Source: a virus
Taxonomy: Duplodnaviria; Caudoviricetes
Reading direction: 5' to 3' (one strand)
DNA: 54,786 bases
IMG/VR virus record: IMGVR_UViG_3300036826_000065
Location: 1-54,786 of that record
The translations under genes and the position numbers were made by a program. The notes under the pieces were generated by a model. The model did no database searches, had not been told where the DNA came from, and saw nothing but the letters and a program-made list of their open reading frames with translations. This document shows, piece by piece, positions 5,901 to 54,786 of this stretch (its first letter is position 1; each line of letters opens with the position of its first letter).

Positions 5901-7292
5901 AACATAGGGACCAGCATTATACGCAACCAAGTAACCGATGGTGCCCGAACTCTGAACATAAGGTCGAGAGATGAACACATACACACTTGGGGAGGCCGTG
6001 GTCCCTGTTGTTACAAGTTGATAGAAATTGGCGTAACAGGTATTAGCAAGCGAACTATTATTGACGTATACTTCGTTCCAGTTCGGGATCAGCACGCCGC
6101 CCGTTGCATTGGAAATGTTGGCGCTGTTAAAAAGCGTGATCGCGGTAACGTCTGCAAAGCTCGTGACGTTGCTGGTGATACGCACTTTTCTGAACAGCCC
6201 GCCGCCGCTTGGAGCCTGAATCGCATTGTCAGCCGTGGAAGCGGTCTGGAAGCCGCCGTCCGCGACGACATAGGCATTGCTGACATAGATGCCTTGCTGG
6301 TTCGGCTTGCCGATGATGTTCAAGATCTGCTGCGTGTAGTCCCACTTGATATTTCCGTCGCCGCCAAAATGACCAGCGGCGTCTTTATACTGCACCGACT
6401 GAGTAACACCTCCCGGCGCGGTCCCGCCCGCGACCGCAGAGAAGTCGATCTCCTTCCACTGCGGAACCGTGGGGTCGAAGTACCAGTAGGTCGATCCGGC
6501 CTTATGGGCAATGGCTCCGTAGGCTGATACCGGCCCATTGAGGGTTGCCGGGTCGGAGTGACTCAGCATGTGGTAACCCTGCGCCGTGACGAACCCGGCG
6601 GCTGCATCGATCCAGGCGTTACAGCACAGGTGCTGGCCGATGATCTGCGATATCGTCCCGTTGGAAGTCGAGGCCCAGAGCAGCACGTCGGTCCCGGTGA
6701 ATGCATGGCCCGCCAGAGCCACCGGAAAGTTCAGCGCTCCCGCCAGCGAGGGGAAGTCGATGTAGCCGCCCCAGTAGGGCGTGGCGTGAGATGACAGATA
6801 AATCCCCGCGCAATCGATGCCGCCCTGGGGGATGCGCAACGAGTTGTATGCCGTGCTCGTTGGCAATGCCAAGTAGTCGGTTGTGAACTCGATGCCGTAG
6901 CCCGCCTGGGTATTGATCTCCGCGCCCTGGTCGGCGTTGAGGATCGTCTCGCCGGTCGATCTAATGAACGACATCTGCGTGCGCAGGAACGCGCCCGTGT
7001 CGTCATAAGCGAACAAGTGCAGGTCGGAGCCAACATTGCTTCCCGTTTCCGCGCCCTCCTCCGCGAACGCCCAGCGGGAAGTATTGTCGTTGTAGAAAAC
7101 GAGCTTGTCTGGAAACAGCGCACTAGACTGCTTCTTGTCGGCTGCGGTGAAATCTTCCGCCACGCTTACCAGCGAAGCGTTGTGTAAGTTGTGCTGGTTC
7201 CCGTCAATGTCGGACAACCAGGGCGTCTGCGCGGCGCCACTGCTTGATCCGCCGGTCGGAGAGCCTTTCTCGTAGATCCAAGATCGTGCCAT
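2982..7292 (-). CDS. long tail fibre / receptor-binding protein with internal duplication
   Basis: 1436 aa, G/S/T/N-rich; ERMRI...GYVGINN.P...LHVKG fibre repeats; last large tail gene. Confidence 0.8.
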   Translation of the reverse strand: MARSWIYEKGSPTGGSSSGAAQTPWLSDIDGNQHNLHNASLVSVAEDFTAADKKQSSALFPDKLVFYNDNTSRWAFAEEGAETGSNVGSDLHLFAYDDTGAFLRTQMSFIRSTGETILNADQGAEINTQAGYGIEFTTDYLALPTSTAYNSLRIPQGGIDCAGIYLSSHATPYWGGYIDFPSLAGALNFPVALAGHAFTGTDVLLWASTSNGTISQIIGQHLCCNAWIDAAAGFVTAQGYHMLSHSDPATLNGPVSAYGAIAHKAGSTYWYFDPTVPQWKEIDFSAVAGGTAPGGVTQSVQYKDAAGHFGGDGNIKWDYTQQILNIIGKPNQQGIYVSNAYVVADGGFQTASTADNAIQAPSGGGLFRKVRITSNVTSFADVTAITLFNSANISNATGGVLIPNWNEVYVNNSSLANTCYANFYQLVTTGTTASPSVYVFISRPYVQSSGTIGYLVAYNAGPYVYTAGATGTINNVMGFWCDGGAYGGGATSTIGNWFCFIGSNPAATTITNLYGVRMEALSSGQHNYAIFTQQSSTANDSWAMYNTGDAPSYFGGKVGIKTAPTWPLQVMGVSGSPSIYASIGYIHSEDGFYTPAPSYQAIQATTGGVYCNGVGIISSSISPYKGGYIDLPRLQGGINFPQPLLNASFPDGWTDVLLWASSANQPPAAKVVLTTHLCCNAWINAASGFVTAQNVHMKAHASTADLNPPGGGYGVFAFQGNSTYYYWDDTPSPTLPAGWKTLNFNTLASIGGAGTDQAIQYYKTGTGITGEAGFAWDYTNKILSLNPGILRIASDVTNQISMTYANDTSYFYPYIAFSRHRGTLAAPTKIQSGDILGGVNWYGSGNGGAAILCTAVTVSASPNYYVTGALSFLVGDGSGGGSNATSLELRSTYARFYESVGIGDAPWNTLSVRGDIGAYATANTSSSAKIAASIYLGDPIYYNASYYAAAPGLSAIWETASGQTSGLAFYTYAGGTTRTERMRIQYNGYVGINNPAPQTFLHVKGTSNSVVGIECEQGFIQSNGGLYVDVATNYNSIQTVGGIVALGRIGVFPAFTPDLGSGLTGVTGLFVTSNATNNLLVDCYDSANDPTRVPGFIGRRAYYTGGLPGSGVFQNLPSGLTLMSIGGRGAHSGGFISAASASITFVTSEAWSGSAWGTDIQFNVTPNTQSSRYAKMWLHNTGQLHVRGQVTGENPNPPNDDQTNARSVGVYLENGNFRAADSHGGAAFMMTSTGGFGSANLPIPGTGVGGLAYQSGSTYYYYTGTGWGTVNFATTGAGVTSVNGMSGPAISIAGSTGVTASNGSNTVTLSIGQPVGTTNDVTFRSVQCSGAPGTGIIFQYSGGSNFQVDNLGNVSCMQININGILSADSGGKWLRTVQTNNHVYGGDFGIIGGGVTSYGNHTGLTVASGAVVALKINNADVNVRIIGGIICYETEP

Positions 7293-45890: not shown

Positions 45891-47660
45891 TCACGCCGCG
45901 ATCCGTACCCTGGTCGTTACCTGGAGTTGCTTATTGTAAATCGCACGTTCAGGCTGCTTACAATTAGCAACATTCAGGCGAACCAGGATGGTGATTTCCG
46001 CCCAGCCGTGTGCGTAGCGTATGCCGCCAGCCGGAATCCAGTCCAGCAGGATGGCTTGTTGCTCCACCGGGTCGGTCGTTTGGAAAGCCTTGCGGGCTAG
46101 CCGCTGAATTGTGGCGAGGTCGTATTGCTCCGGCTCAACCTCTCCGGCTCCGGCTTCGATGCGCCGGTCCAAGAGGGCGAGTTCGGTTTTATATTTCGCC
46201 ACCAGCCCAGCATACTCCGCTTTGTCCTCGTCGGAGTCGGCGTCGATCTCCTTTCTCATCGCTTCCCGTCGCTTCTGATCCTTCCGCTTCCGCTCTTCGC
46301 GGAGGCGAGCCAGTTCGGCCTCGTCGTCCGGCGTGACGACCTCACCGAACTTCTCCGCGACCAGCGACTCCAACTGATCGCAGACGGCGGTCTTCAGCCC
46401 ATTCCAAACGCCGGGATGCAGAATGTCGGCGCGAACGGATTTGGAATCGCACTCGTAATGTCCCTCCGTCTTGTGCCGGTGCGTGCAGCGGTAGTACAGC
46501 GTGCGCGTGCCGTCGTCCTTCACCGCACTTCCATGCGCGGGCGCCATCGCTTTTTTGCACTCCTCACCGATGCCCTCGCCGGAGATCACGGTGGCGCCGC
46601 AGGAAACCAGCGTGCTGAGTATCGCCACCTGACCGCCGTCTTCGGCTCGCCGTGCGGGCTTGCCAGTGGACGCGGCGCCATTGCGCTTCAGGCCTTCGAT
46701 GATGGCCGCTTGCTCATCCGGCGTCCAGATGCCGCCACCGGGCATCTCGATCTTGCCAGCCCACTCCTCGCGGGGCTTGAACACCTTCACGGTGCGAACC
46801 TTGTGCCGCTCCGCTTCCGGGTTACGAACTTTTTTGGGCTCGATGAACTTGCGCTTGCCGTACCACCATTCGCCGCTGGAATAGGTCCAGTCGTTCGCGA
46901 TTGCGGCCACGGTAATCGGATTCCAGCCCAGCTTGCCGCCGGGAGTCTTGATGCCACGCGAGTCCAGTTCCCGGCAGATGCCACGCTGGGTGCCTTCGCG
47001 CCCCCCGGCCAGCGCGAGTTCACCGATTAGCTGCACGACTTCCAGTTCGTTCACGCGCCGTTCGTAGAAGTTCTGCGGTCTGCCGGTCGGAACTTCCTCG
47101 TTGGCGTTCAGAGCCCGCGCCGCGATCTCCCTGGCGGTCACCATGTGCCAGCCGTAGGGCGCACCGAAGTGCGCGAGGCCCTTCGCCAGCTTCGCCATCA
47201 CGCCATAGCGGGACTTCTCCGCAATGTCGTCCCGCTGATACTGGGCGACGGTCAGAAACATGTTCATCTGCATGCGGAACCAGCCGCTGTCCTGATACCA
47301 GCCCAGGTCGCCCAGCAGCACGTCGGCCTTCAGTTCGCGGAACTCGCGGATGGTTGCGAGCCCGCCTTCGACGTCGCGGGAGAAGCGGTCGATCCAGGGG
47401 AATGCGACGGCGTTCGCCACGCCAGCGCGGATCTGTTTTTTGGCGAGCCGGATCGAAGGCCGGTTGAAGTCAGTGCCGCTGTAGCCCTTGTCTTCGATCA
47501 TCAGTTCGGCGGGAATGTCGCAATCGTACTTGTCGGCCAGGAGGGCGAACTTGTTGCCCTGTCCGTCGAAGGAGTAGTTGCCGACCTGCTTCAGCAAGCT
47601 GACGCGCTTAATCCCGATTGCGATCCGGCGTGCCGGTCTTGGGAATGCTCTTGCGGCCAT
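45891..47660 (-). CDS. large serine recombinase (integrase)
   Basis: RVS..Q, D.GYSG...RP, DRFSR; recombinase domain PYG; Zn-ribbon cysteines and coiled coil. Confidence 0.92.
   Translation of the reverse strand: MAARAFPRPARRIAIGIKRVSLLKQVGNYSFDGQGNKFALLADKYDCDIPAELMIEDKGYSGTDFNRPSIRLAKKQIRAGVANAVAFPWIDRFSRDVEGGLATIREFRELKADVLLGDLGWYQDSGWFRMQMNMFLTVAQYQRDDIAEKSRYGVMAKLAKGLAHFGAPYGWHMVTAREIAARALNANEEVPTGRPQNFYERRVNELEVVQLIGELALAGGREGTQRGICRELDSRGIKTPGGKLGWNPITVAAIANDWTYSSGEWWYGKRKFIEPKKVRNPEAERHKVRTVKVFKPREEWAGKIEMPGGGIWTPDEQAAIIEGLKRNGAASTGKPARRAEDGGQVAILSTLVSCGATVISGEGIGEECKKAMAPAHGSAVKDDGTRTLYYRCTHRHKTEGHYECDSKSVRADILHPGVWNGLKTAVCDQLESLVAEKFGEVVTPDDEAELARLREERKRKDQKRREAMRKEIDADSDEDKAEYAGLVAKYKTELALLDRRIEAGAGEVEPEQYDLATIQRLARKAFQTTDPVEQQAILLDWIPAGGIRYAHGWAEITILVRLNVANCKQPERAIYNKQLQVTTRVRIAA
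45926..45971. other. candidate attP
   Basis: GTTGCTTATTGTAA-18 bp-TTACAATTAGCAAC (13/14 inverted arms) with central TT. Confidence 0.6.
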
Positions 47661-47781
47661 TAGCGCGTTCCTCCCTTTCCAGCCGTCTGCCGATTTCGAC
47701 CAGACGCCTCAGAGCCGCCGTGAGCTTCGCGCCTTCCAGCGGTTGCCCTTGCTTCAGCGTGACTTTGATCTTGCGGGCCAT
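47608..47781 (-). CDS. 57-aa basic protein upstream of int (possible RDF/regulator)
   Basis: Manual translation MARKIKVTLKQGQPLEG... Confidence 0.35.
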   Translation of the reverse strand: MARKIKVTLKQGQPLEGAKLTAALRRLVEIGRRLEREERANGRKSIPKTGTPDRNRD

Positions 47782-47895
47782 CAGTGATGGCTCGTCGTGA
47801 TGACCATGCCTTGAGCATGGTCTGTATGGTTTCGGTCATGGTCTATGCGTAGCATGGGCCGTCTGCTTCAAGTCAATGGCCTTGGGGTGAAATCC

Positions 47896-48225
47896 TCATC
47901 CCTCCCAGGGCGTCAGGGCGAAGCCGTCGCCCTCCGGCGGATGATCGACCCACAGGGCCTCGTATAGCGACTCGCTCCGCGAGACGACTTTGTAGTCGAG
48001 TTCGCCCGCTCGCCGCAGCATGCGCAGGATGCGATCCGGCGAGCCGGGCGCCACTTCGCCCACGTTCACGCGCACGTAGCGCCGCAGATCGTCCGCGAAG
48101 AACTGCTGGCCGCACCGCTCGCGCATAAACGCTTTGACGGCCCCGCCGATACGCTCGCTGACGCGCTCGATGTTCTCTTGCTGCTCGTCCATCGCCTCAT
48201 TCCATGCCCAGTTCCTGGCGCACAC
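47896..48225 (-). CDS. hypothetical winged-helix-like protein
   Basis: APGSPDRILRMLR..G..DY.VVSR..SLY. Confidence 0.6.
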   Translation of the reverse strand: MCARNWAWNEAMDEQQENIERVSERIGGAVKAFMRERCGQQFFADDLRRYVRVNVGEVAPGSPDRILRMLRRAGELDYKVVSRSESLYEALWVDHPPEGDGFALTPWEG

Positions 48226-48562
48226 CGGGAAGGTCGCGGAACCAGAACCGGCGCCCGTCAGCCGACTCGCCGGTCAAGTGCATGCGCAGAATTGGAGATT
48301 GCTTCCCGCGCAGATGTTCACGCAGCCACTGGAGCCCAACGACAATGAAGCCGTGCGGGCTGCGGGAGTCCACCTGGGGCGGCATGGCCGCGACTTCGGT
48401 CTTGGAGAGTACATCCGCCATTCCGTCCCAGGGATTGATCTCATCGGTCATTTGATTTCTCCTCGCCTCGCCATGCCCCTCCGCGCCCAACCGGGCCTCG
48501 CCGGGTAGATCATTCGTCGGCCTCCAGAATCGATATGCCGCCAGCTTGCTTCGCCGCCTCAT
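48197..48562 (-). CDS. hypothetical protein (true start probably internal, MTDEIN)
   Basis: GGAG SD before the internal ATG. Confidence 0.45.
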   Translation of the reverse strand: MRRRSKLAAYRFWRPTNDLPGEARLGAEGHGEARRNQMTDEINPWDGMADVLSKTEVAAMPPQVDSRSPHGFIVVGLQWLREHLRGKQSPILRMHLTGESADGRRFWFRDLPGVRQELGME

Positions 48563-48731
48563 CGAGCAGGTCCATTCCCGGCTGGTTGGTCGCGAAGATG
48601 TAGATCGGCCCTTCCTCCGGCTGCACCACCTTCCTCACCGTATAGAAGGGGTCCGGCGACGTGATGGAGTGCGTGCGGAAAACATCCGTCAGCAAGTCGC
48701 CCAGGAGGAGAGCCATTTCGTTGCTGGTCAT
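48510..48731 (-). CDS. hypothetical protein
   Basis: Coupled ORF. Confidence 0.5.
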   Translation of the reverse strand: MTSNEMALLLGDLLTDVFRTHSITSPDPFYTVRKVVQPEEGPIYIFATNQPGMDLLDEAAKQAGGISILEADE

Positions 48732-48952
48732 CGCTTCGGCCTTCTGAATAACTCGCGATCAGGGCACGTAACGAAGTGCGACTCGCCGTCCGGGTTGTAG
48801 ATTCCCAGCACGCCGTTCAGGTGGCGCACCATATAGACTTCAGCCTTGCAGTTGGGACCGCGACACACAGATGGATTCCCAACACGCGACAGTAACGCCC
48901 GCGTGAGCGCGTGGGCGCGTTCCAGTTCGGTTAGTTCATTTACTCCAGACAT
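48728..48952 (-). CDS. small Zn-binding hypothetical protein
   Basis: C...C and HF.TCP. Confidence 0.55.
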   Translation of the reverse strand: MSGVNELTELERAHALTRALLSRVGNPSVCRGPNCKAEVYMVRHLNGVLGIYNPDGESHFVTCPDRELFRRPKR

Positions 48953-49154
48953 TCAGTCCCCTCCGCAGTGATCGTCACCGAATGCAGCAGATTGCGCGAG
49001 CGATCTCGCCATTCGATCTCGACGCCGCCAATTAAGTTGGCCCGCACTTCGGGCGTGGCGTTGATGATTTGTTCGGCCAGAAAGATGGCCGCTTCGCTGG
49101 GCGGCTGATCGCCGCAGCCTGGGTCGGCCCCGCGCAGATAATCAAGCTTGATTG

Positions 49155-49577
49155 TCATTCGCCCTCCTTCGGCGGCTCCTTCACGGGTTTCAGCGAGCCG
49201 GAGTCCTCCTCCATCAGCCGCTGGCCTTCCTCCCAACTCACTGCGTTGGGATACTCCACCATCTCGATGCCGCGCCGCTTCAGTTCCTTCATGACCTTCT
49301 CCATGTGATCCGCGAATGAGCGGTTGTGCGCGTGTCCCAGGACCCAGCACAGGACCTCCGCATAGGAATGAATACGGATCGCTAACATCGAGCCGGAGCC
49401 AATGGGGATGCTGGGCTCGAGAATGAGTCCCGCGTATAAGTCGTGCGCGAACTGAATCTCGCGCAAGCTACGGATTTTAGGCCTTTCCATCGCCCCCTCG
49501 CTTGAATTGAAGCTTGCGGGCGAAGTCGAAGAGCACGTCATAGGCGACAAGATAAACGTCCCGTTTCCGCTTCTCAC
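49155..49577 (-). CDS. hypothetical protein (start probably MERPKI)
   Basis: L.WVLG motif; internal SD. Confidence 0.5.
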   Translation of the reverse strand: MRSGNGTFILSPMTCSSTSPASFNSSEGAMERPKIRSLREIQFAHDLYAGLILEPSIPIGSGSMLAIRIHSYAEVLCWVLGHAHNRSFADHMEKVMKELKRRGIEMVEYPNAVSWEEGQRLMEEDSGSLKPVKEPPKEGE

Positions 49578-49680
49578 TGATCTCCAGGTAGCGCGGGAAA
49601 AGCCGAATGATGAGAGGCCGGTCGCGATGCTTTGCCGCCGTCTCGCGAATTACTGAGCTTGAGCTTTCAAGCTTGGTCAT
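49477..49680 (-). CDS. hypothetical protein
   Basis: GAGGAG SD. Confidence 0.55.
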   Translation of the reverse strand: MTKLESSSSVIRETAAKHRDRPLIIRLFPRYLEISEKRKRDVYLVAYDVLFDFARKLQFKRGGDGKA

Positions 49681-49827
49681 AACTCCTCAGTCGCGCCGCA
49701 GGTTTGACACACATATCCATAAAACACCATCCATTCCGAATAGCCGTCACAACTGACGCCCGATGGATACTCAACTTCGGCGTAAGTCATCGGGGCGCCG
49801 CATGAGCAAACCTTCTCGGGTTGATCA

Positions 49828-50304
49828 TTCTCGCCTTGCATCGCACTGCCCCACCTCACCATGCCCTGCCCCACCTCGCCAGACATTGCCTCGCCATGCC
49901 TAGCCATGTTGAGGAAAAAAACCTCGCCTTACCTTACCTGACCGTGCCCGACCCTACCCGACCCTACCCGACCAGACCTCACCCGACACAGCCTCGCCAT
50001 GCCCCGCCGCTGAAAAAAAAGAATGAGTGCAGCCTCGCCATGCCTCGCCGTGCCGGACCTCACCTCGCCATACCGGGCCACGCCTTAACTCGCCTAGCCC
50101 CGCCATACTTTAAATCCTCGCCTCGCCATGCCTGACCAAGCCAAACCGCGCACGGCCTCACCATGCCGGACCCCGCCCAGCCACAAGATGAAAATATGAG
50201 TGCAACCTCGCCTTACCTTGCCGCGCCGCGCCACTCCCCGCCACTCCATGCATTGGCCCACCACGCGATGCCACGCCAAGCCTGACACCGCCCTGCCTCA
50301 CCAC
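49828..50304 (-). repeat. five (NN-GGY)n pentamer arrays, putative guide RNAs (49828-49907, 49921-50010, 50032-50106, 50115-50184, 50205-50304)
   Basis: Strict 5-nt periodicity (RCC-NN on plus), 14-20 units each, separated by AT-rich linkers. Confidence 0.85.
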
Positions 50305-50309
50305 GATCT

Positions 50310-50990
50310 CTACGCGGCTGTCATCGTCTTGCCGGACAGCAAGCCAGCCAGCCGCTCCAAAGCCTTGCGAACATCGTCGTTCGCGAGATCCATGAGCCCG
50401 CTCTCTAGGAGATCGATCACCTGACGGATCATGAACGTCTGGGTCGCGCCGCCCAGGCGTTTATTCACCTCGACCTGCTCGCCGGTCAGCGTCATTCCGC
50501 TCATGTGGGCGGCGGCGCGTTTCAGCGGAATCGGCTGCGGCTTCTTTTGCCCCGGCACATTCAATTCGCCCAGCCGGTTGAGCCGAAGCTCGCCCAGTTT
50601 CATGACCGTCACGCCCAGGGCGGCGGCGGTCTGATCAACCGTCAGTTCCAGCTTCTGCCCAATCAACTGACAGCGGATGCGGTCAATGTTCGTCAGTTTG
50701 CGCCCATGATCCGCGTTCAGGCGCATCGCATCCATGAATAGCTCGCCATCGGTCTTATAGTTCCGTGTCACCACCTCGACCGGATATTCCTTGCCGTGCA
50801 GCGACAGATACAGTTTGTACCGATGGAAGCCGTCCACGATCCGCCGCGATTTCGCGCAGATGATAATCGGCGGGAATGTTCTCCCGGCCTTCAGCGATTG
50901 CTTCATTTCCGCGACGTGGTACATATCTACCGACTCTCGCGGATAAACGTCATAGTCCAAAACTAAGTCGCTCAATTTATAAGTCTTCAT
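50310..50990 (-). CDS. ParB/Srx N-terminal domain protein
   Basis: FPPIII...IVDGFHRY and N..HG..L motifs. Confidence 0.8.
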   Translation of the reverse strand: MKTYKLSDLVLDYDVYPRESVDMYHVAEMKQSLKAGRTFPPIIICAKSRRIVDGFHRYKLYLSLHGKEYPVEVVTRNYKTDGELFMDAMRLNADHGRKLTNIDRIRCQLIGQKLELTVDQTAAALGVTVMKLGELRLNRLGELNVPGQKKPQPIPLKRAAAHMSGMTLTGEQVEVNKRLGGATQTFMIRQVIDLLESGLMDLANDDVRKALERLAGLLSGKTMTAA

Positions 50991-50991
50991 A

Positions 50992-51332
50992 ACCTCGCCC
51001 TGCACCGCCAAACCTCACCATGCCTCGCCGTACCCAACCCGGCCAGACCCCGCCAAGCCAAGCATCACCCCGCACGGCCCTGCCACGCCCCGCTGCAAAA
51101 GAGTTCCACAAATCTTATAAGTGCAACCGCGCCATGCCTTGCCGAACCGCGCCAGGCCGTGCCTGACCCGGCCAGACCTCGCCTGACCAGACCCGGCCAA
51201 GCCTCGATCAGGAGGAGCAGGGCGGGAAGCAGCCCGCCCTGTCGAAGTATGTGTCAGAGTTGTCCTCGCCTTGCCTCGCGCCGCCCAGCCCGGCCAGACC
51301 TTGCCGCGCCAGGCCGCGCACGGCCTCGCCTT
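50992..51332 (-). repeat. three (NN-GGY)n arrays (50992-51091, 51126-51205, 51263-51332)
   Basis: Same periodicity; hairpin at 51218-51241 in a linker. Confidence 0.85.
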
Positions 51333-51907
51333 CAGTTCTTAGAAGTCTCCAGAAGTCGTAGACTGAAACGTCCGAATGGTCCTCCCTTCTCCGGTCGGTA
51401 ATCACCGATGCCGACCATGCGACCGGCGAGGTTGCCAATCTCCTCGATCATCTTCAGGTTCTCCACGATGGTGTCGTCCACCTCCAGGTTCACGACCGCT
51501 CGCCAGTTTTCGATCTTTGGGCGCGAGCGCATGATGCCGATGGTCTTGTTGAGGACCACGCGCCGGGTATCCACCGTGTAGCTCTTGCCGCTCATCGGCT
51601 TGCCCTTGGCGTCCAAGATCTGGAAGTATTCGTCCAACGGGAAGATGGTCGCCTTCAGAACTCCCAGCGCACTGAGCTTGCCGATGCGACGGCCTTTGCC
51701 GCCGCTGGCAATCGCCGCCTTCACGGCGACTGTGGGAAAGACGAAGTTGCCCTTCTCATCCAGGTAACGACCGGCTGCGGCTTCGTCCTCCGGCTCCGGC
51801 ACCTTCTTGGTGTCCAGCTTGCCGTGCTTACTGCCGCTCATTGCGGAAGGGTTGTGCATCAGAATCGGCGTCGTGCCGACCAGTTCGACTTTAATATTCG
51901 TTGACAT
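51332..51907 (-). CDS. RAMP/Cas7-like RNA-binding protein (putative guide-RNA effector)
   Basis: N-terminal VELVGTTPILMH, FP..AVKAAI, and C-terminal Gly-rich loop GIGDYRPEKGGPFGRF; flanked by arrays. Confidence 0.65.
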   Translation of the reverse strand: MSTNIKVELVGTTPILMHNPSAMSGSKHGKLDTKKVPEPEDEAAAGRYLDEKGNFVFPTVAVKAAIASGGKGRRIGKLSALGVLKATIFPLDEYFQILDAKGKPMSGKSYTVDTRRVVLNKTIGIMRSRPKIENWRAVVNLEVDDTIVENLKMIEEIGNLAGRMVGIGDYRPEKGGPFGRFSLRLLETSKN

Positions 51908-51941
51908 ACACGTGTCCTCTCAGTTCTCATTGATTGGATTG

Positions 51942-52166
51942 ACCATGCCCCGCCATACCACGCCGAATCACGCCTGACCAAGCCAAACCCAACCGCGCCT
52001 AGCCAAACCCTGCCGGGATGCTATGTCCGGGGTTGCCCAATAGTTTCGGTATTAGGCCCTTGTATTAAGAAACCTCGCCTTGCCATACCATGCAGTGCAT
52101 TGCCATGACCCGCCGGACCTCGCCGGACCAGACCTCGCCTAGCCGTGCCACGCACCGCCATGCCTC
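51942..52166 (-). repeat. two (NN-GGY)n arrays (51942-52016, 52072-52166)
   Basis: Same periodicity. Confidence 0.85.
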
Positions 52167-52533
52167 AACTCTCAGAATCTTCGTCAAGATCTTCCCTGTC
52201 GAATAACTGCCTCTGCAACTCGCCGGGAGTCATCTTCTCGACGCGAATCGGCTTACCACTGCTCGCAACAAAAACAGTCTTTTCGCCAACTGAGGGCTCA
52301 TCGAAAGTAACCCCAATCTCCATCTCCTCCAACTCATAGCCCAGGGCGAGTTTCTGCTGGAGATCGCTGCACGCCTTCTCGGCGGTCAGGATCTCACTGG
52401 CAATCGCGGACGTCATTGCCTTTTTCCGACTGCGCAGTTCATAAATCGCTCCCACGCGAAAAACCAGTTCGTCCTTCATCCGCGACGTCTCTTCGGCGGT
52501 GAACGGTCGCTTCACTTCCTCCGTCATCTTCAT
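52165..52533 (-). CDS. hypothetical phage protein
   Basis: FT.EE...GYE...G...MT..ELQ; GGAGG SD. Confidence 0.7.
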   Translation of the reverse strand: MKMTEEVKRPFTAEETSRMKDELVFRVGAIYELRSRKKAMTSAIASEILTAEKACSDLQQKLALGYELEEMEIGVTFDEPSVGEKTVFVASSGKPIRVEKMTPGELQRQLFDREDLDEDSES

Positions 52534-52546
52534 GAAGTAAGCCTCC

Positions 52547-53518
52547 TTAGTGCGCCCAACTGGGTTGTGGCAAGAACACCTTCTTGCCGGTTTCGGTTTG
52601 CAGCCGTGCGACGAAGATCGCCTTCACCCGGTTGTACGCGGGCGTGCGGTCGCGTTCGGAGATCGTGCGCCCCAGGAGCCAATCGACATAGTCCGCTGTC
52701 GCGCTTACCGACATGAGACATTTCTTGAACGAATCCCTGGTAATCGGCGCCACCTTGCTCGACAGTTCGGGGTGCAGGACTAAGCGCCGGAAAAGCCACA
52801 TGCAGATGATCATGTTGAGCGTTGACCAGAGCCGACCGTACTGCAAGTCGCGCCCCCAGGCGCCCACGGCAAGATTCAGGAATTCGATGAGCGCATCGTA
52901 CTCCTTCGGATCGAGCGTTTCCGCGACCAGGGCGGCGCTTAATGTGGCGCCCGTGCTGGGGACTTCCGACATGCTGCCGCGCCATGCCCTGAGGACCAGC
53001 GACATGCCCACGACCGGCGCCGACTGATTGCGGCGGATGTAATCGTAGCCGACAAAGGGACAATGCGCCCGCAACTTCCGCAGCCCGTCGATGGAGGACT
53101 CCAGCCCGCGCAGGATATCGTCTGGGCGCATGCGGACCAGTTGCGAGTTCAGCCGGACGAACTCCTCGCCCATGTCGGCCATCGAGTTGAAGTAGTGCGT
53201 CCTGACGTCGGTGTAGCCTTCCTTGCAGCCGGAGAGGATGAACGACTCCTTCCTGTGCTGGCCGTCGATCAGATAGATCTCGCCGTCCAGAATCGCCAGC
53301 GTGATGATTCCCGGCCAGACGCCGCCGTCGCGCTTCATCTCTTCGGCCAGGGCGCGGACCTTCTCGTTCTGGCGCACCGGCCTCTGGAACGGCGGCGACT
53401 TCCACTTCTCCAGCAACGTGGGCGTCACCATGATGGTGTCCACGACGGTGCGAGTCTTTTTCTCCACCGGCGTTTGCGGTTTCACGATTTTAAATAGCGC
53501 GGCCAATGGCATGTGCAA
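52547..53518 (-). CDS. DGQHR/ParB-like domain protein
   Basis: FQRP and YLIDGQHR. Confidence 0.75.
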   Translation of the reverse strand: MHMPLAALFKIVKPQTPVEKKTRTVVDTIMVTPTLLEKWKSPPFQRPVRQNEKVRALAEEMKRDGGVWPGIITLAILDGEIYLIDGQHRKESFILSGCKEGYTDVRTHYFNSMADMGEEFVRLNSQLVRMRPDDILRGLESSIDGLRKLRAHCPFVGYDYIRRNQSAPVVGMSLVLRAWRGSMSEVPSTGATLSAALVAETLDPKEYDALIEFLNLAVGAWGRDLQYGRLWSTLNMIICMWLFRRLVLHPELSSKVAPITRDSFKKCLMSVSATADYVDWLLGRTISERDRTPAYNRVKAIFVARLQTETGKKVFLPQPSWAH

Positions 53519-54275
53519 CGTCTCCTTCCTCAGTGGTCATTTCCGCGAGCCGATAAATCTCCTTGGCCTCCGGCGAGTCCAAGAGATGCCAGCCCATTGC
53601 GTCGTAGGGCCTCATCCTTGCGCTCCGCAGGATCATCCGAACGAATTGCCCGTGCCCATGGTTGCTGCGGTCGCTGATCAAGCCGTGCGGTCTGTGGAAG
53701 AGCTTGGGCATCTCCTCCAGCCGGTACAGCCTCCGGTGCGCCTTCTCCGGGTTGGCCTTCAGGTCGCCGCGCATCAGCCGGTAATGGCGCAGGTTCAAAT
53801 TCATGATCAGGTCCATGCGCGGGAAGCGGGCGCAGCACTCGATGATCTCCGCGACCGGAACGCCCGCGCCGGTCCTGCTCCGATACAGCCAGCCGTTCGG
53901 GTCGATCACGATACTGCCGACAGCGTGCGGCGGCATGCCCTTGGCCCATTCCATGAAGTGCCGGTTATCGAGCATCTCCACCCGGCAGTTGGGTCGGCCT
54001 CGCAGCCGCGTCTCAAGCTCGCCCGCGCGGGCGTTATCCAATTCAAAGAACATCGCCTTCCAGCGGCGCAGATGTTTCTGCGCAAGCTCCAAGAAGACCA
54101 GCGGCGTACCGGGGACGCCGTACTCATCGTTCCAACCGGAACCGGCGTTCAAGTCGAAGTGATAGTAAGTATCGCCAGGGTAAAGTATCCGCATGCTCAT
54201 GCTGAACATAGCGGCGATCCGCCGCCCTTTGTCGCAAGTGCTCAGACCTTGCCCTTGACGTCTGCCATCCTGCAT
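53490..54275 (-). CDS. SAM-dependent methyltransferase-like protein (TcmP/GMT-like)
   Basis: GQG.S..., FDLNAGSG, G.P, IDPNG and DLIMN motifs. Confidence 0.6.
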   Translation of the reverse strand: MQDGRRQGQGLSTCDKGRRIAAMFSMSMRILYPGDTYYHFDLNAGSGWNDEYGVPGTPLVFLELAQKHLRRWKAMFFELDNARAGELETRLRGRPNCRVEMLDNRHFMEWAKGMPPHAVGSIVIDPNGWLYRSRTGAGVPVAEIIECCARFPRMDLIMNLNLRHYRLMRGDLKANPEKAHRRLYRLEEMPKLFHRPHGLISDRSNHGHGQFVRMILRSARMRPYDAMGWHLLDSPEAKEIYRLAEMTTEEGDVAHAIGRAI

Positions 54276-54301
54276 AAGTTCGCCAGCTTTCGGTAAGGGA
54301 G

Positions 54302-54659
54302 TTACTCTTTGGGCGGCTCGCCGGTTTCCTGCGCCGCCGACATGACCCGGTCGCGGAGCTTCGGCCTTTCTTTCGCACCGGCCTCCAGTTGCTTCGCGCC
54401 TTCGTCGAGGACTTCTTCCCAGCCGCTGACATCCACGGCTTCGGTGTCCTCCTTCTCGATGACGTTGCGCACCTCAGGCGAGAGCGGAAGCCACTTGGAA
54501 TGGCGGCGGAAAACCGTCTTCTTCGCCATCTCGTCGAAATCGGTCACCCATGGTCCCTGATCCGGCGACTTACTGCGCTTGCGGATCTTCTCGATCTCTG
54601 ACGGGTTCATGACGATGAAATCTTCGCTACCGTCCTTGAATCGCACGTAGGAATAGTAA
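54302..54659 (-). CDS. recT: RecT C-terminal part (joined to 524..1)
   Basis: GPWVTDFDEMAKKTVFRR.SKWLPLS. Confidence 0.9.
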
Positions 54660-54786
54660 GCGACTCGATCCGGCCCGCGATCCTTGGCGTTCGGCGTGTG
54701 CTTTAAGTGCGCCTCGGTTCCGTAGGCATAGCTCCATTCGTCGTTGCTGTAAACCGCATCGGCATGCACATAGCTGACGTCGCCGG

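Follow-up and report, generated by a model that had tools for sequence, protein, structure and literature searches.

The 54,786-nucleotide (nt) stretch analyzed here (the window) comes from a soil phage and corresponds to a complete virus record, IMG/VR entry IMGVR_UViG_3300036826_000065, that has terminal repeats. Its minus strand carries what is very likely a phage-borne Viral Interference Programmable Repeat (VIPR) system. By sequence and fold, the locus comprises a Vipr protein of the RAMP type, a conserved accessory gene with a ParB fold, and 10-11 same-strand arrays of GGYNN pentamers. The fuller account, including the mechanism and targets proposed below, we also hold with good confidence, if slightly less firmly than membership itself. 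Systems of this kind are already known from 2026 preprints, and the locus is a further VIPR, in a ParB-linked, tail-less clade. A sequence-only reading of the same DNA had pointed to the likeness to VIPR, and rightly so; the novelty that it implied does not stand, since VIPR was published in 2026 and there is therefore no new system here.

We assigned the 191-residue product of vipr by profile and structure comparisons. A 77-sequence family profile matched a sole solved structure, PDB 36pp_D, the "SUSP1 Vipr protein" (E 8.6e-27, residues 1-185), which the single sequence also recovered (E 3.3e-9). The AlphaFold model (mean pLDDT 92.4) placed type VII Cas7 and type III Csm3 at the top of a Foldseek search (best E 5e-7), in keeping with the RAMP/Cas7-like protein described from the letters alone and now identified as a homologue of SUSP1 Vipr. 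SUSP1 Vipr contacts GGY through H17, R138, D177, W178, and R179 (10.64898/2026.04.26.720927). In our HMMER alignment these residues correspond to H18, R129, D169, Y170, and R171, with tyrosine for tryptophan at 170; among 77 Vipr relatives, R129 and R171 were invariant and D169 was conserved in at least 90%. No Pfam or NCBIfam family was found for Vipr, and it matched PHROG 4652, a family of unknown function (E 9.8e-21). Relatives fell into 121 clusters in a word-indexed search and into 2300 representative clusters at E <=0.001; identity to a Felixounavirus protein was ~27%.

The ten main arrays, A to J, occupy minus-strand positions 49831-52164 and hold 19, 15, 13, 16, 20, 20, 13, 15, 18, and 15 units, respectively. 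The earlier count of ten arrays was thus right for this stretch; the range of 14-20 pentamers given with it was not, the true range being 13-20, and an eleventh array (K, 8 units) lies outside the region then described, 1.3 kb downstream of array J. Near-constant GGY and variable NN, both claimed at the outset, are borne out by the 172 units of the 11 arrays, in which the first G was present in 156 (91%), the second in 168 (98%), and C or T at position 3 in 169 (98%), with all 16 dinucleotides represented at NN. The plus strand of the entire 54.8-kb window contained no GGYNN array. In 60 first-order Markov simulations, scored on both strands, zero arrays of at least 8 units arose; the filter used there is stricter and passes 10 of the 11 real arrays, GGY being perfect in just 70% of the units of array F.

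The locus is tightly packed, running on the minus strand from arrays A and B through vipr, arrays C, D, and E, and the ParB-like gene to arrays F to J, and the last unit of array E overlaps the ParB-like start codon. Linkers between arrays measure 13-62 nt and are mostly A/T-rich, as had been noted before. The description of most arrays as ending in GGC-GA-GG also fits, this 3' end being exact (GGCGA-GG) in 7 of 10 arrays, or 8 of 11 counting array K; array D ends instead in GGCGC-GG and array J in GGCGA-GA, and array B lacks the motif. Arrays I and J both open with GGC.. GGCAT GGCGA GGC.. TGTC., which resembles the 3' end of G, H, and K, a sign that the conserved ends may be the points at which arrays arise or recombine. 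Array K may be a short or decaying vrRNA. It sits directly upstream of a small open reading frame (ORF) that starts near 48451. The features of the locus are collected in the table.

Table. Features of the VIPR locus in the window, with minus-strand arrays listed in the order in which they occur on that strand.
Feature	Coordinates	Strand	Details
vipr gene	51332..51907	-	191 aa; RAMP/Cas7 fold, homologue of SUSP1 Vipr
ParB-like accessory gene	50310..50990	-	226 aa; ParB N-terminal domain, then helical domains
vrRNA array A	52070..52164	-	19 GGYNN units; end GGCGA-GGTT
vrRNA array B	51940..52014	-	15 units; ends 33 nt before vipr start codon; without GGCGA-GG end
vrRNA array C	51266..51330	-	13 units; begins 1 base after vipr stop codon; end GGCGA-GGAC
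G+C-rich hairpin in 62-nt C-D linker	51218..51241	-	linker fold -20.2 kcal/mol, z -2.6; no T-run after hairpin
vrRNA array D	51124..51203	-	16 units; as NNx codons, apparent tyrosine-integrase box II (H-D/E-L-R-H-T-L-A-S)
vrRNA array E	50990..51089	-	20 units; as NNx codons, apparent tyrosine-integrase box I (R-G-E-..-G-L-R-W-T-D-I-D)
vrRNA array F	50203..50302	-	20 units, 14 with perfect GGY; end GGCGA-GGTT
vrRNA array G	50118..50182	-	13 units
vrRNA array H	50030..50104	-	15 units
vrRNA array I	49919..50008	-	18 units
vrRNA array J	49831..49905	-	15 units; 3' end overlaps likely start of small zinc-ribbon ORF
vrRNA array K	48463..48502	-	8 units; end GGCGA-GGCGA-GG

To place the locus among its relatives, we compared it with 78 vipr loci, 76 from a Vipr-profile scan of viral contigs plus two phage records. 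Of these, 48 had GGYNN arrays of at least 8 units on the same strand as vipr, and none had them on the opposite one. The other 30 (L012-L014, L018-L021, and 23 more) had no canonical array of at least 8 units within the flanks examined; they may use non-canonical repeat units, which the preprints report, or carry arrays beyond those flanks. A homologue of the ParB-like gene adjoined vipr in 10 of the 78 loci, and when 14 window proteins (45891-54769) were tested, only Vipr and the ParB-like protein recurred in those ten as a set. In a quick maximum-likelihood tree (70 rows, after exclusion of nine that had <150 matched residues; quick search only), the 11 ParB-linked Viprs formed one side of a branch with SH-aLRT 97. 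They were sister to a group containing the Pseudomonas phage LESphi2 protein, the Felixounavirus protein, and L027, the union having SH-aLRT 98. Across 66 arrays of the ParB-linked clade, the last two units were biased to (A/G)A and then GA, followed by GG and mostly A and C, giving the consensus end GGC-RA-GGY-GA-GGAC. The window's 11 arrays were exceeded in number by one of the 78 loci, L011, with 13. There (6341-7163), as in L017 (6347-6950, 10 arrays) and L030 (6162-6510, 5 arrays), arrays stand back to back, split only by a 6-nt GGAC-NN spacer that moves the pentamer register by one base; these may be the "staggered array" form named in 10.64898/2026.04.26.720920.

By analogy with the SUSP1 system, arrays and genes would share a transcript, from which vrRNAs of ~65-100 nt would be cut. 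One Vipr protomer would then sit on each repeat, hiding the GGY bases and presenting the NN pairs, which would bind double-stranded DNA with every third base skipped, and binding would silence transcription. The preprints 10.64898/2026.04.26.720920 and 10.64898/2026.04.26.720927 describe one protomer per repeat with GGY hidden and NN presented, and pairing of NN with double-stranded DNA with one target base skipped per unit. Published VIPR binding represses transcription, and the skipped base falls mostly at the wobble position (10.64898/2026.04.26.720920). The sequence-only reading had arrived at the same scheme, with GGY bound by protein and NN reading two of every three target bases, and its view that the system lacks an evident nuclease and may act by binding or repression agrees with those published systems that have DNA-binding accessory genes. 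In the window, the pooled NN pairs, minus the two conserved 3' units, fitted sense codon positions 1-2 of this phage's genes best (+15.5 bits, versus +3.9 for the next model). The arrangement on one strand, together with the tight packing, suggests a single long transcript that is later cut.

Guides D and E would be directed at two catalytic motifs of a tyrosine recombinase gene. With each NN written as an NNx codon, guide E reads V-(S/R)-R-G-(D/E)-(F/L)-(F/L)-G-L-R-W-T-(D/E)-(I/M)-(D/E)-F... and guide D reads ...L-(H/Q)-(D/E)-L-R-(H/Q)-T-L-A-S..., which we take to be box I and box II of tyrosine recombinases, respectively. The earlier remark that such peptides match conserved motifs is thereby made specific for these two guides. 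Among 151 arrays (the window plus the 78 loci), only D fitted the box II template and only E the box I template, and mean template counts over 200 shuffles were 0.035 (box II) and 0.1 (box I).

We searched sequence collections with seeds from guides A, D, E, F, and H. An exact 10-unit seed of guide E found one match in the metagenome collection, where the full guide agreed at 35/40 NN (87.5%); the site lies in frame on L-R-R-G-E-L-L-G-L-R-W-T-D-I-D (box I) of an integrase gene running off its contig. A 9-unit seed returned 12 matches in species genomes, of which 5 extended to 29-32/40 on integrase box I and 7 did not extend. With up to 3 mismatches allowed, a 14-unit pattern of guide E had 4 sites in 3 of 5 genomes, compared with 0 for the same pattern read backwards; across 401 genomes of one phylum it occurred in 2 (one new match, weak), again with 0 for the backwards control. 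For guide D, the best in-frame site was the H-x-L-R-H motif (box II) in 3 of 4 complete integrase ORFs, at 17-20/32, and its own seed found one site, at 23/32. Viral contigs yielded no match to an 11-unit seed of guide E, a single non-extending match (<25/40) to its 9-unit seed, and none to a 10-unit seed of guide D.

Several results weigh against the account as a whole. No sigma-70-like promoter was detected in the locus, which held 2 terminator-like sites against 3.2 expected from shuffles, none of them between arrays on the gene strand. The 40-60 nt pseudoknot tail of the SUSP1 type is absent, linkers being as short as 13 nt and sharing only GGCGA-GG(A/T). Among the guides, D never rose above 23/32; the seeds of A and H had no match in the collections searched, and the two matches to the seed of F extended to 25/40 at most. 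The seeded searches gave no site with at least 90% of NN, and no guide except E reached 80%. The best match to guide E was itself found via its seed, in a low-G+C integrase unlikely to come from the host of a phage with 60% G+C, and that integrase is probably not the natural target. With regard to RNA structure, two of three linkers folded no better than shuffles and the third, between C and D, has one hairpin; within the locus no Rfam family reached threshold, and no hammerhead was found between arrays.

Because the match was seeded, the gene is of unlike composition, no 90% site was found, and the A, F, and H seeds led nowhere, we only lean towards guides D and E being aimed at a tyrosine recombinase. 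That the system is a genuine VIPR and the integrase resemblance coincidental, or the mark of some other target, with the real targets being unrelated genes or non-coding sites, is the most serious alternative, if a rather unlikely one. The same shortfalls speak for it, namely the missing 90% target, the peak of guide D, and the seeded origin of the best guide E match in a host of unlike composition, and so does the behavior of the guides in the 78 related loci, where none, D and E included, did better than 60 shuffles. Set against this, two adjacent guides spell both catalytic motifs of one enzyme family, which none of 149 other arrays does and which is rare in shuffles; 5 of 12 seed matches extend in frame on one motif; the backwards-read control has zero matches; and a published VIPR targets a satellite recombinase (10.64898/2026.10.15.759431).

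If guides D and E do address a tyrosine recombinase, the likely role would be to keep a competing prophage, satellite, or integrative element that shares the host from excising or integrating. Natural VIPR targets are rival phages and satellites, and include a satellite recombinase (10.64898/2026.04.26.720920, 10.64898/2026.10.15.759431). In the phage's own genome, no guide scored above the best of 200 shuffles of NN order, and every guide of at least 13 units scored at most 70% of NN. The complete phage genome had no match to PF00589 (tyrosine integrase), with the control of this search detected in 14 of 14 genomes, and the guides would leave the phage's own large serine recombinase untouched. 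As to the host, the nearest phage relatives of the portal protein infect various Proteobacteria (35-50% identity), and the serine recombinase gave no clue.

We weighed three further explanations of the arrays, each less probable than a chance resemblance to integrases. Some arrays could work against the VIPR of competitors, redirecting or silencing it as decoys or anti-VIPR guides, like the solo vrRNAs of satellites and SUSP1-family phages. vrRNAs that target other VIPR loci are reported in 10.64898/2026.10.15.759431, and eight guides here are without an assigned target; even so, no guide matched vipr genes or arrays of the 78 related loci better than shuffled guides, and the arrays are placed within an intact vipr operon, which makes this improbable. 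It is more improbable still that the arrays act as DNA, as iteron- or parS-like sites through which the ParB-like protein would control partition or replication. A ParB-fold gene does lie amid the arrays, yet in 38 loci without that gene the arrays still follow the strand of vipr, with none opposite; iterons bound by proteins do not vary as NN does here; and in the SUSP1 and P. fulva systems, homologous arrays have been shown to be expressed and to co-purify with Vipr (10.64898/2026.04.26.720920). The last explanation, that the arrays are G-rich low-complexity sequence arisen by chance or a decaying, functionless repeat, is refuted as far as sequence statistics reach and has a negligible probability: although Tandem Repeats Finder reports array fragments only (periods 5, 10, and 20, because 2 of every 5 bases vary) and array F is degenerate, simulation produced no such arrays, the real ones share one strand and are conserved position by position at 91-98%, and the same architecture stands beside vipr in 48 of 78 loci.

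Next, we examined the accessory gene of this VIPR, which is present as the sequence-only reading described it, its start being most likely the ATG at 50990 and not the TTG at 51011. Its product retains the residues invariant in the family, including YPR, DGxHR, and N..G, and was modelled at pLDDT 93.1. Foldseek ranked first Myxococcus ParB with CTP analogues, Noc, a pNOB8-like ParB N-domain, and KorB (best E 4e-6). A profile of the 10-member family matched ParB structures at E 6.7e-5, PF02195 was found in 4 of the 10 members, and the window's own copy had no Pfam match above the cut-off; it did match PHROG 1033, "ParB-like partition protein" (E 6.7e-10). The protein showed no similarity to the product of the gene after vipr in a Felixounavirus, at the vap1 position (BLASTP E 73), and the term "ParB" does not occur in the main text of 10.64898/2026.04.26.720920 or of 10.64898/2026.10.15.759431. 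A complex prediction for Vipr with the ParB-like protein (score 0.00) spoke neither for nor against their binding.

The ParB/KorB-like protein would probably strengthen silencing on DNA. We also put forward, tentatively and as a doubtful extension, that in this ParB-linked clade the Vipr-vrRNA filament might go beyond local blocking of transcription and act as a site, programmed by RNA, at which a ParB/KorB-like clamp is loaded; the clamp would spread along the target and silence or immobilize the whole rival element, the guides being aimed at invariant catalytic motifs of tyrosine recombinases. Were this the case, one phage could disable many unrelated integrative elements despite synonymous drift.

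Natural variation was surveyed by aligning contigs (not reads) from other soil metagenome runs to positions 48300-53600, with low depth in some runs. One run contained a relative with ~92-94% likeness across arrays B, D, and E and the genes for Vipr and the ParB-like protein. In this relative, the stretch with arrays F-J (49822-50312, ~490 nt) was swapped for ~1180 nt of unalignable sequence, and array C was also replaced. Guides are thus replaced more quickly than genes, which is what one would expect of guide arrays. Two runs showed 10-nt insertions, the length of two units, towards the 3' end of array D. In one metagenome contig, 49779 is joined directly to 52324, as would be seen in a relative without the whole VIPR cassette; the joint is weak, its shorter side being 27 letters.

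All large ORFs of the phage are on the minus strand, and so are the genes around the locus. Upstream, 52547-53518 encodes a second ParB-superfamily protein with a DGQHR-type motif and a weak GmrSD_N/DUF262 match below the cut-off (E 7.7e-4), and 53490-54275 has a weak match, likewise below the cut-off, to the TcmP "three-Cys-motif partner" (E 6.5e-6); neither gene is common to related VIPR loci. The region is flanked by a RecT-like annealing protein (54302-54769; PHROG 148, E 2.3e-35), which recurs in 2 of the 78 loci, one of them among the ten ParB-linked (L004), and by the phage's own integrase, a large serine recombinase with Resolvase, Recombinase, and Zn_ribbon_recom domains (45891-47660). 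A small ORF at 49677-49838, with two CxxC pairs and a weak A2L zinc-ribbon match (E 0.003), starts within the final units of array J or immediately beyond them.

The locus leaves the known VIPR principle unchanged. Its recognition from raw sequence alone amounts to an independent rediscovery of VIPR, and the combination of a ParB/KorB-fold accessory with tail-less vrRNA ends has implications for vrRNA processing and for the means of enforcing silencing. The recombinase reading of guides D and E, in a genome whose own integrase is a serine recombinase, would extend the published idea that VIPR immobilizes rivals via their recombinase, and the targeting of catalytic motifs suggests a choice of target that is robust to escape through codon as well as protein changes.

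Among known systems, class 1 CRISPR-Cas shares the Cas7 fold with Vipr, at an identity of only 8-14% to Csm3 of type III-A and Cas7 of type VII, and differs in how the guide is read, which here is discontinuous, with 2 in 5 RNA bases addressing 2 in 3 target bases. The window showed no repeat with a period like that of CRISPR (60-79 nt) in Tandem Repeats Finder, and the window proteins scanned, a part of all, included no Cas family (Pfam, NCBIfam) and no further RAMP gene. With the CTP-dependent clamps ParB, Noc, and KorB, the accessory protein has in common the fold of the ParB N-terminal domain. Its arginine-patch motif, by contrast, is DGxHR and not GERRxR; the gene is without an evident ParA partner or parS site, and it travels with vipr and not with a partition operon. 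The closest counterparts are the type II VIPRs of Escherichia phage SUSP1 and a Pseudomonas fulva prophage. From SUSP1, the locus is set apart by its Vipr, which belongs to a ParB-linked clade of its own, sister to the group of SUSP1 and LESphi2; by its 10-11 arrays versus 4 and its 13-20 units in the ten main arrays versus the reported 9-16; and by array ends consisting of GGCGA-GG(A/T) only, where SUSP1 vrRNAs are capped by a pseudoknot tail. The accessory differs as well, having a ParB fold and no similarity to the gene at the vap1 position. What the locus shares with the type II systems is a Vipr RAMP protein with matching GGY-contact residues, GGYNN arrays on either side of vipr and on its strand, a two-gene core, carriage by a phage, the absence of self-targets, a guide that appears to fit a coding target with the skipped base at the wobble position, and a recombinase as an apparent class of target.

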